Below, in pieces: positions 34,932 through 35,162 of a stretch of DNA of 49,279 nucleotides. Location: positions 1 to 49,279 of the forward strand of contig CANKMW010000072.1 in the NCBI GenBank assembly GCA_947483555.1, read 5' to 3'. Position 1 is the first letter of the stretch, and every line of letters starts with the position of its first letter. This DNA is from Myxococcales bacterium. GTDB lineage: Bacteria; Myxococcota_A; Polyangia; Haliangiales; Haliangiaceae. The notes below the pieces were generated by a model. It saw only the letters and a program-made list of their open reading frames with translations. It searched no databases and had not been told where the DNA came from. The position numbers were made by a program, and so were the translations under genes.

Positions 34932-35162
34932 ATGCAGCTCGAGATCCGCTACTGCGTGGCTTGAAGTTACCTGCCCCGGGCCGCCCGTGCGGCGGCCGCT
35001 CTGACCCGCGCGTTCGGCGCCGACGTGGCGCTGGTCCCCGGCGGTCGCGGCGAGTTCACCGTGTGGCTCGACGGTGCCAAGGTCGCCGACAAGCGCCATG
35101 GCGACTTCCCGAGCGAGACCGAGGTCGTCGCCGCGGTCCGCGCCGCGTCGACCCCGGTCTGA
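34932..35162 (+). CDS. SelW/Rdx-family selenoprotein (in-frame TGA at 34962-34964 read as selenocysteine)
   Basis: 'MQLEIRYCVAUSYLPRAARAAAALTRAFGADVALVPGGRGEFTVWLDGAKVADKRHGDFPSETEVVAAVRAASTPV'. CxxU motif 'CVAU', then 'GxFEV..dG' and 'GrFPs' Rdx hallmarks. Clean 77-codon frame ending at a TGA at 35160-35162. Confidence 0.65.
34979..34997 (+). promoter_or_regulatory. Candidate bacterial SECIS hairpin
   Basis: GGCCGCC-CGUGC-GGCGGCC: 7-bp GC stem with a 5-nt loop, starting 14 nt after the in-frame UGA. Confidence 0.45.

Follow-up and report, generated by a model that had tools for sequence, protein, structure and literature searches.

A predicted selenocysteine-encoding UGA in a SelW-like (Rdx family) gene of a high-G+C Myxococcota-type contig

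Positions 34932–35162 of contig CANKMW010000072.1 (Myxococcales bacterium, assembly GCA_947483555.1) hold a short reading frame with a TGA as its eleventh codon, and the question raised by this locus is whether that TGA ends translation or is read as selenocysteine (Sec). We analysed the whole stretch of 49,279 nt, referred to here as the window, which has an overall G+C content of 72%. An earlier annotation note (the original prediction) had proposed that a 76-codon frame between an Hsp70 gene and a GST-like gene, passed over by standard gene callers, encodes a SelW/Rdx-type selenoprotein, with the TGA at the U of the CxxU redox motif and a G+C-rich 7-bp hairpin, with GU in its loop, beginning 14 nt after the UGA. 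All of these points held in our analysis. We consider it very probable that 34932–35162 is a real and functional UGA-recoded SelW-like/Rdx selenoprotein gene, with expression and Sec insertion predicted, because family membership, the CxxU motif, a conserved UGA, a position-locked hairpin, and the existence of Cys homologues all agree. The gene is an ordinary, previously unannotated addition to a family of bacterial selenoproteins already known in 2005; it opens no new question, as SelW-like CXXU proteins, in-frame selenocysteine insertion sequence (SECIS) elements, and Cys homologues were described in bacteria two decades ago.

Reading frame and family of the predicted product

The frame starts 26 nt after the TGA stop of the Hsp70-like gene (33136–34905, plus strand) and is followed by the GST-like gene (Table 1), so that these two genes flank it as originally proposed. 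Its translation on the plus strand reads MQLEIRYCVA, the internal TGA as codon 11, SYLPRAARAAAALTRAFGADVALVPGGRGEFTVWLDGAKVADKRHGDFPSETEVVAAVRAASTPV, and a terminal stop; with Sec at codon 11, the predicted product has 76 residues, beginning with MQLEIRYCVAUSYLPRAARAAA and ending with STPV, and its redox motif reads C-V-A-U (Cys8 to codon 11). The G+C content by codon position (0.74/0.57/0.88) presents the pattern of the confident genes of the contig. TGA also serves as an ordinary stop here, ending both the Hsp70-like gene and the Rdx gene itself. An alternative in-frame start (ATG at 34911) is a less likely start than 34932 given the start positions of the homologues, which begin at the Met equivalent to 34932; in one of the related loci described below (L006), a stop codon lies four codons upstream of the equivalent Met. 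No obvious Shine-Dalgarno sequence precedes the start codon. A GCTAcacTG-type motif (GCTA-n-n-TG/TAnnnT), which in the window includes a tentative −10-like hexamer, is found 6–9 nt before the ATG in the window and in the related loci L004, L005, and L006, and its position suggests an mRNA with no leader or almost none, and with Sec predicted to be inserted at codon 11; a consensus promoter scan returned no promoter at 34917–34922.

Family searches, run with Cys written at the position of the TGA, placed the product above the curated family thresholds of two libraries. Its match to Pfam Rdx (PF10262), the alignment that the original prediction had called for, reached E=4e-14 (53 bits vs. a gathering score of 22.6) and spans residues 3–70 on profile positions 2–73 of 74. 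The NCBIfam model TIGR02174 (CXXU_selWTH) was matched with 41.5 bits, above its curated cut-off of 34.2, while the top-scoring NCBIfam model was NF041051, "SelT/SelW/SelH family (seleno)protein" (E=1.8e-17, residues 4–69 on positions 2–69 of 70). NF041051 is the SelTWH_Campy equivalog, and its cut-off of 88 bits was missed (score 63.3); the predicted protein is thus related to this Campylobacter-type short form, with which it shares a short length (about 70–76 residues; 70-position profile), and on these scores is not a member of it, belonging instead to the broader TIGR02174 subfamily.

A profile of eight UGA-form sequences (the window and seven relatives) matches the bacterial Rdx structures 3dex (SAV_2001; E=2e-13), 2fa8 (Atu0228), 2ojl, 2oka, 2obk, and 2p0g, as well as mouse SelW (2npb) and human MIEN1/C17orf37 (2ljk). 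The alignments extend over profile positions 2–72 with the motif in the same place, the Y-C-x-x-C of the solved structures (YCTQC in 3dex and 2fa8) aligning to Y-C-x-x-U. The solved bacterial proteins have about 103–108 residues and carry Cys, whereas the protein predicted here has 76 residues and a predicted Sec. By these profile and structure matches, the predicted product of 34932–35162 is a member of the Rdx/SelT-SelW-SelH family; the matches to solved structures also point to a thioredoxin-like fold with the motif at the end of the first beta-strand. In such a small thioredoxin-like protein, Cys8-x-x-Sec11 would form a reversible redox centre that alternates between selenol/thiol and selenenylsulfide.

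Conservation of the UGA codon and of the downstream hairpin

A protein search with the predicted product returned only five matches, each 54–58 residues in length and confined to the region beyond the TGA. All five are truncated calls that start after the TGA at differing, non-homologous positions; the JGI label for the truncated relatives is "predicted Rdx family selenoprotein". Four DNA loci behind protein-search matches, together with three loci that a genome scan located in metagenome-assembled genomes (MAGs; JBLHSN01, DRPG01, and JACKER01), namely one Myxococcota MAG, one hydrothermal MAG labelled "Deltaproteobacteria", and HK-STAS-MYXO-39, form the set L001–L007, which with the window gives eight UGA-form loci from Myxococcota-type MAGs and metagenome contigs; the genome scan did not return the window's own genome. 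TGA stands in the same alignment column in all seven orthologous loci recovered as DNA, whose products are 44–70% identical to the window protein. The surroundings of the TGA read I-(R/T)-Y-C-x-x-TGA-x-Y-(L/K)-P-x-A, with I5, Y7, C8, Y13, P15, A17, R19, and A21 invariant; the I-x-Y-C and Y-x-P-x-A motifs are kept despite synonymous differences. None of the seven relatives presents a frameshift or a further stop. Per site, synonymous differences outnumber non-synonymous ones before the TGA (0.44 vs. 0.29, over eight codons) and also after it (0.56 vs. 0.37). With a shared TGA column, no frameshifts, and a synonymous excess on both sides, this conservation pattern is that of a translated UGA and not of a decaying pseudogene. 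The original prediction had named a frameshift, or a stop with no conservation beyond it, in orthologous loci as one finding that would speak against a selenoprotein; conservation extends to both sides of the TGA.

More distant homologues carry Cys at this position. A metagenome scan with a pattern that demanded TGY (a Cys codon) at the Sec column, which can reach Cys forms only and no UGA forms, returned 24 Cys-form loci that are 32–46% identical over the best segment and read I-T-Y-C-x-x-C-G-Y; a pattern that permits TGA at this column, for UGA-form orthologues, is TAYTGYNNNNNNTGANNNTAY. In the 16 non-redundant Cys-form loci examined, TGC or TGT stands at the UGA column, which answers the question, left for orthologues by the original prediction, of whether Cys occurs at this codon. 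In an alignment of 20 rows, Cys8 is invariant in 8/8 UGA forms and 12/12 Cys forms. Homologues with Cys in the column of the UGA give the classic Sec/Cys pairing. A scan of viral contigs for the motif plus hairpin returned zero matches.

The hairpin downstream of the UGA is separated from it by a 14-nt spacer (34965–34978) and consists of the stem strands GGCCGCC and GGCGGCC around the loop CGUGC, that is, a 7-bp stem and a 5-nt loop with 21 nt from UGA to loop and −16.1 kcal/mol; it sits within the codons for R-A-A-R-A-A-A. The consensus model of bacterial SECIS elements has an apical loop of 3–9 nt, an upper stem of 4–16 bp, a UGA-to-loop distance of 16–37 nt, a G among the first two loop positions that is usually followed by G or U, and a minimum free energy of ≤−7.5 kcal/mol (PMC13188914), and the hairpin at 34979–34997 lies within every one of these limits. 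The same register (21 nt to a 5-nt loop) was found in 8/8 UGA forms and in 0/16 Cys forms, 9 of which have no hairpin at all that complies with the model. Across the eight UGA-form loci, the loop reads C-G-(U/G)-G-(C/U), 93% of cells in the stem are paired, and the five inner (core) pairs are never broken; changes in the stem include one compensatory double change from C-G to U-A (in L001) and four G-U wobbles. Synonymous diversity is 0.30 in the codons of the hairpin vs. 0.56 in the rest of the gene. At the protein level, the helix-1 stretch P-R-A-A-R-A-A is constrained in the UGA forms (P15, A17, R19, and A21 do not vary there) and differs among the Cys forms, so that the eight loci offer a small, clean example of an RNA signal that constrains a protein sequence. 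A side observation concerns a subgroup of Cys forms, L025, L026, and L027 (ITYCGGCGYEPRAEALAF), that carries, 17 nt beyond the Cys codon, a hairpin whose loop reads (A/G)GAA and whose geometry fits the bacterial SECIS model. This hairpin could be a fossil SECIS from a change of Sec to Cys, of the kind described in other families (PMC1794560), or could be due to chance.

In the established bacterial Sec pathway, on which the proposed mechanism is modelled, SelB carrying Sec-tRNA(Sec) would bind the hairpin loop, where C-G-U-G-C supplies the G-U/G-G dinucleotide that SECIS loops of bacteria typically carry; as the UGA of codon 11 enters the A site, SelB would deliver Sec in competition with release factor 2. 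The hairpin resembles SECIS elements of the E. coli fdhF type, with a stem-loop directly after the UGA inside the open reading frame (ORF), a small loop in which U or G comes after a G, and a spacing within 16–37 nt, but a bulged U or a lower stem reaching the UGA is not conserved in the eight loci. Eukaryotic SelW, by contrast, relies on a SECIS in the 3′ untranslated region (PMC1088965), whereas the hairpin of the window gene is in frame. The gene shares with bacterial SelW-like CXXU proteins a small Rdx-family product, an N-terminal CXXU, a UGA with a hairpin within the coding sequence, and Cys homologues elsewhere, and does not differ from them in kind; this copy comes from a 72% G+C Myxococcota-type MAG, and the hairpin of its clade is unusually uniform (loop C-G-K-G-Y and 21-nt spacing in 8/8 loci). 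The genus Anaeromyxobacter falls in today's Myxococcota. It was catalogued among the deltaproteobacteria with 11 selenoproteins, SelW-like not being listed for it, while SelW-like proteins were recorded in Geobacter (G. sulfurreducens), Desulfotalea psychrophila, Desulfotomaculum, Alkaliphilus, and Symbiobacterium thermophilum (PMC1794560). In the Sargasso Sea set, no selenoprotein family was more abundant than the SelW-like CXXU proteins, which count 48 genes there and have bacterial SECIS hairpins in frame (PMC1088965).

Points against Sec insertion and competing readings

Several results weigh against Sec insertion at this UGA. Genes for SelA, SelB, and SelD and for tRNA-Sec were found neither in the contig (49 kb) nor in related loci totalling about 160 kb, as searched by Pfam scans of essentially all contig ORFs, ARAGORN, Rfam, and tblastn; E. 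coli SelA, SelB, and SelD, run by tblastn against the window plus 33 loci, matched only two Cys-form loci, through a generic GTPase domain. The fold energy of the single sequence is no better than that of shuffles (z=+0.66), and the covariation in the stem is not significant, with 176/500 shuffles matching its score (eight sequences, with a stem that overlaps conserved codons). With the pairing slid by −3 as a control, 82% of cells are still paired, since the stem consists of a G/C repeat. No Rfam SECIS family was matched, either by the whole window at gathering score or by 34850–35250 at E≤10, where only chance microRNA and small nucleolar RNA matches appeared. SECIS elements of different bacterial genes show no sequence resemblance to each other (PMC13188914), and the missing Rfam match is therefore expected. 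Among the 916 TGA trinucleotides of the window, 16 (1.7%) are followed by a perfect SECIS-geometry stem of 7 bp or longer, and 21% by any hairpin of 5 bp or longer whose geometry is SECIS-like. The hairpin alone is thus weak evidence in 72% G+C DNA, and the comparative evidence carries more weight.

The original prediction had counted 12 tRNAs in the window, none of them tRNA-Sec. The second part stands; as to the number, ARAGORN identified 11 tRNAs in the array at 46931–48007 (minus strand), and the twelfth, a tRNA-like gene at 47935–48007 (minus strand), was seen by Rfam only. Rfam itself reported five tRNAs of this array in the run over the whole window at gathering score and six above 29 bits when the region was searched alone. 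One candidate, 47564–47637, scored best on the tRNA-Sec model and was rejected (38.6 vs. 47 bits, 74 nt, anticodon GUC); it is a tRNA-Asp. The conserved UGA and the predicted SECIS lead us to infer that the Sec machinery is present in this genome, and the gene thereby yields a prediction, namely that an uncultured Myxococcota-type organism with 72% G+C carries the full Sec machinery.

Among the alternatives, a more far-reaching version of the Sec reading would place the gene in a lineage-specific redox module of high-G+C Myxococcota, consisting of the Sec-containing Rdx protein, a 405-residue protein encoded convergently downstream, and, in some genomes, the GST-like protein, with a leaderless mRNA and Sec inserted 10 codons after initiation. 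We consider this unlikely, as we do a second reading of such reach, in which a tRNA(ReC)-type system makes the UGA mean Cys. The latter possibility can also be put as a direct rival, in which SelB decodes the UGA and hairpin with Cys brought by a tRNA(ReC)/SelC*-type tRNA, giving, at least in part, a CxxC protein. tRNA(ReC) is reported to decode UGA as Cys given a downstream SECIS and was present in about 13–17% of genomes in one survey, Desulfobacterota included (PMC13582414), and sequence alone cannot separate Sec from Cys insertion. However, a tRNA of this type is not among the tRNAs of the window, and known tRNA(ReC) coexists with a canonical Sec system without replacing it (PMC13582414). 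Moreover, the UGA has been kept in eight diverged loci even though a single mutation to UGC or UGU would give Cys, suggesting that Sec itself is selected; we regard the rival as improbable, slightly more so than the two broader readings.

A still smaller probability attaches to a pseudogene, that is, a CxxC Rdx gene broken by a TGC-to-TGA change in an organism that does not decode Sec. Such a history would fit a gene that gene callers leave uncalled in a genome whose Sec machinery is only inferred, but it accords poorly with a TGA retained in 7/7 relatives at 44–70% identity with intact frames and purifying selection on both sides, with a position-locked hairpin specific to the UGA forms, and with an intact coding G+C signature.

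It is more improbable again that translation occurs only downstream of the TGA (e.g., from GTG at 35025, giving a 45-residue peptide) and that the upstream match is fortuitous. ORF finders do report a 45-residue ORF at 35025–35162, and the database entries for the relatives are truncated calls of this sort; these, however, begin at non-homologous positions, the upstream I-x-Y-C-x-x does not vary and aligns with the Rdx profile from position 2, and a peptide of 45 residues would be without the first strand, the redox motif, and the greater part of helix 1 as aligned in solved structures. This downstream ORF was not found in a collection of 15 billion proteins. The least probable of all, a chance frame with a chance hairpin in G+C-rich intergenic DNA, where long ORFs and stable hairpins are many, the fold z-score is not significant, and SECIS-like hairpins follow a fifth of TGAs, stands refuted by the evidence from family and orthologues (curated thresholds passed in two libraries, relatives in the PDB, and conserved orthologues).

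Genomic neighbourhood and other features of the window

The gene is missing from public annotation. The window is a complete contig, with copies in ENA (analysis ERZ27280196, contig k141_146726; run ERR5863202) and Logan assemblies of the same sample. In the public gene calls for these, the Hsp70-like and GST-like genes are present and the 272-bp gap between them is empty, as the original prediction had expected, which gave a truncated call as the other possibility. The relatives are annotated only as truncated fragments. The value of recognising the gene is mainly practical, as a correction of annotation. The features of the window that bear on the gene and its surroundings are collected in Table 1.

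Table 1. Coordinates of the predicted selenoprotein gene, its signals, and surrounding features in the window.
Feature	Position	Strand	Remarks
Predicted Rdx/SelW-like selenoprotein coding sequence	34932..35162	+	76 codons plus TGA stop at 35160-35162
Cys8 codon TGC, first residue of CxxU	34953..34955	+	Sequence, alignment
In-frame TGA, predicted Sec codon (U of CxxU)	34962..34964	+	Codon 11; alignment column
Predicted bacterial SECIS hairpin	34979..34997	+	Stem 34979-34985 pairs with 34991-34997; loop 34986-34990
TACACT, -10-like TAnnnT hexamer	34917..34922	+	9 nt upstream of ATG; tentative
GST-like gene	35177..35707	+	GST_C_2 and GST_C matches; starts 14 nt after the Rdx stop
vapBC toxin-antitoxin pair	35710-36354	-	PIN domain E=3e-12; weak VapB antitoxin match
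405-residue protein gene, convergent downstream neighbour	36398..37615	-	No family match
Flanks of tRNA array: vault-protein homologue / RNA ligase region	44337-46898; 48055-49065	-	

The GST-like gene is probably co-transcribed with the Rdx gene. A GST-like gene 72% identical to it occupies the same position in L004, the closest relative, and none was found beside the Rdx gene in L001–L003 or L005–L007. A link to glutathione has been proposed for SelW, and the adjoining GST-like gene would offer such a link here, speculatively; the case for a glutathione link of the Rdx product is weak, because this adjacency is kept only in L004. The 405-residue protein is more widely associated with the Rdx gene, its C-terminal part having 59–76% identical matches directly downstream of Rdx in the three closest relatives, L004 (891–1259), L005 (1794–2078), and L006 (431–703); it had zero matches in Pfam, NCBIfam, and the PDB. 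By eye, GDHFD, GNHD, and GHTGH-like metallophosphoesterase motifs can be seen in this protein. In the window, the GST-like gene and the vapBC pair stand between the Rdx gene and the 405-residue gene, and the vapBC pair looks like an insertion, because L004 carries the Rdx, GST-like, and 405-residue genes without vapBC.

Directly upstream of the Rdx gene, 32495–34905 (plus strand) encodes a DUF2760 protein with a (PEPK)n repeat (32590–32700, plus strand) and, after it, an Hsp70-like ATPase of atypical sequence type, whose HSP70/HscA-like match is partial and far below equivalog cut-offs; the Hsp70-like/DUF2760 pair was found upstream of Rdx in none of the related loci. The tRNA genes form a tight array flanked by a bacterial major-vault-protein homologue (MVP_shoulder E=1e-23, Vault_3) and by an RNA ligase whose OB domain is of the PHA02142 type; together, array, ligase, and vault-like protein look like a mobile or tRNA-repair-related module.

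A search of the window for a second selenoprotein gene, in the form of a TGA flanked by frames with a coding signature, returned only adjacent genes sharing a frame, using a filter that was too strict and missed the Rdx TGA as well. Elsewhere in the window, 30978–32369 (minus strand) encodes a 463-residue protein that is very rich in Cys, looks secreted, and carries C-x-x-G-x-x-C modules in repeated form; it has no match in Pfam. Besides the (PEPK)n repeat, peptide repeats include (TE)n at 2–200 (plus strand) and (GS)n inside an Eco57I-type methylase gene at about 10400–10480 (plus strand).

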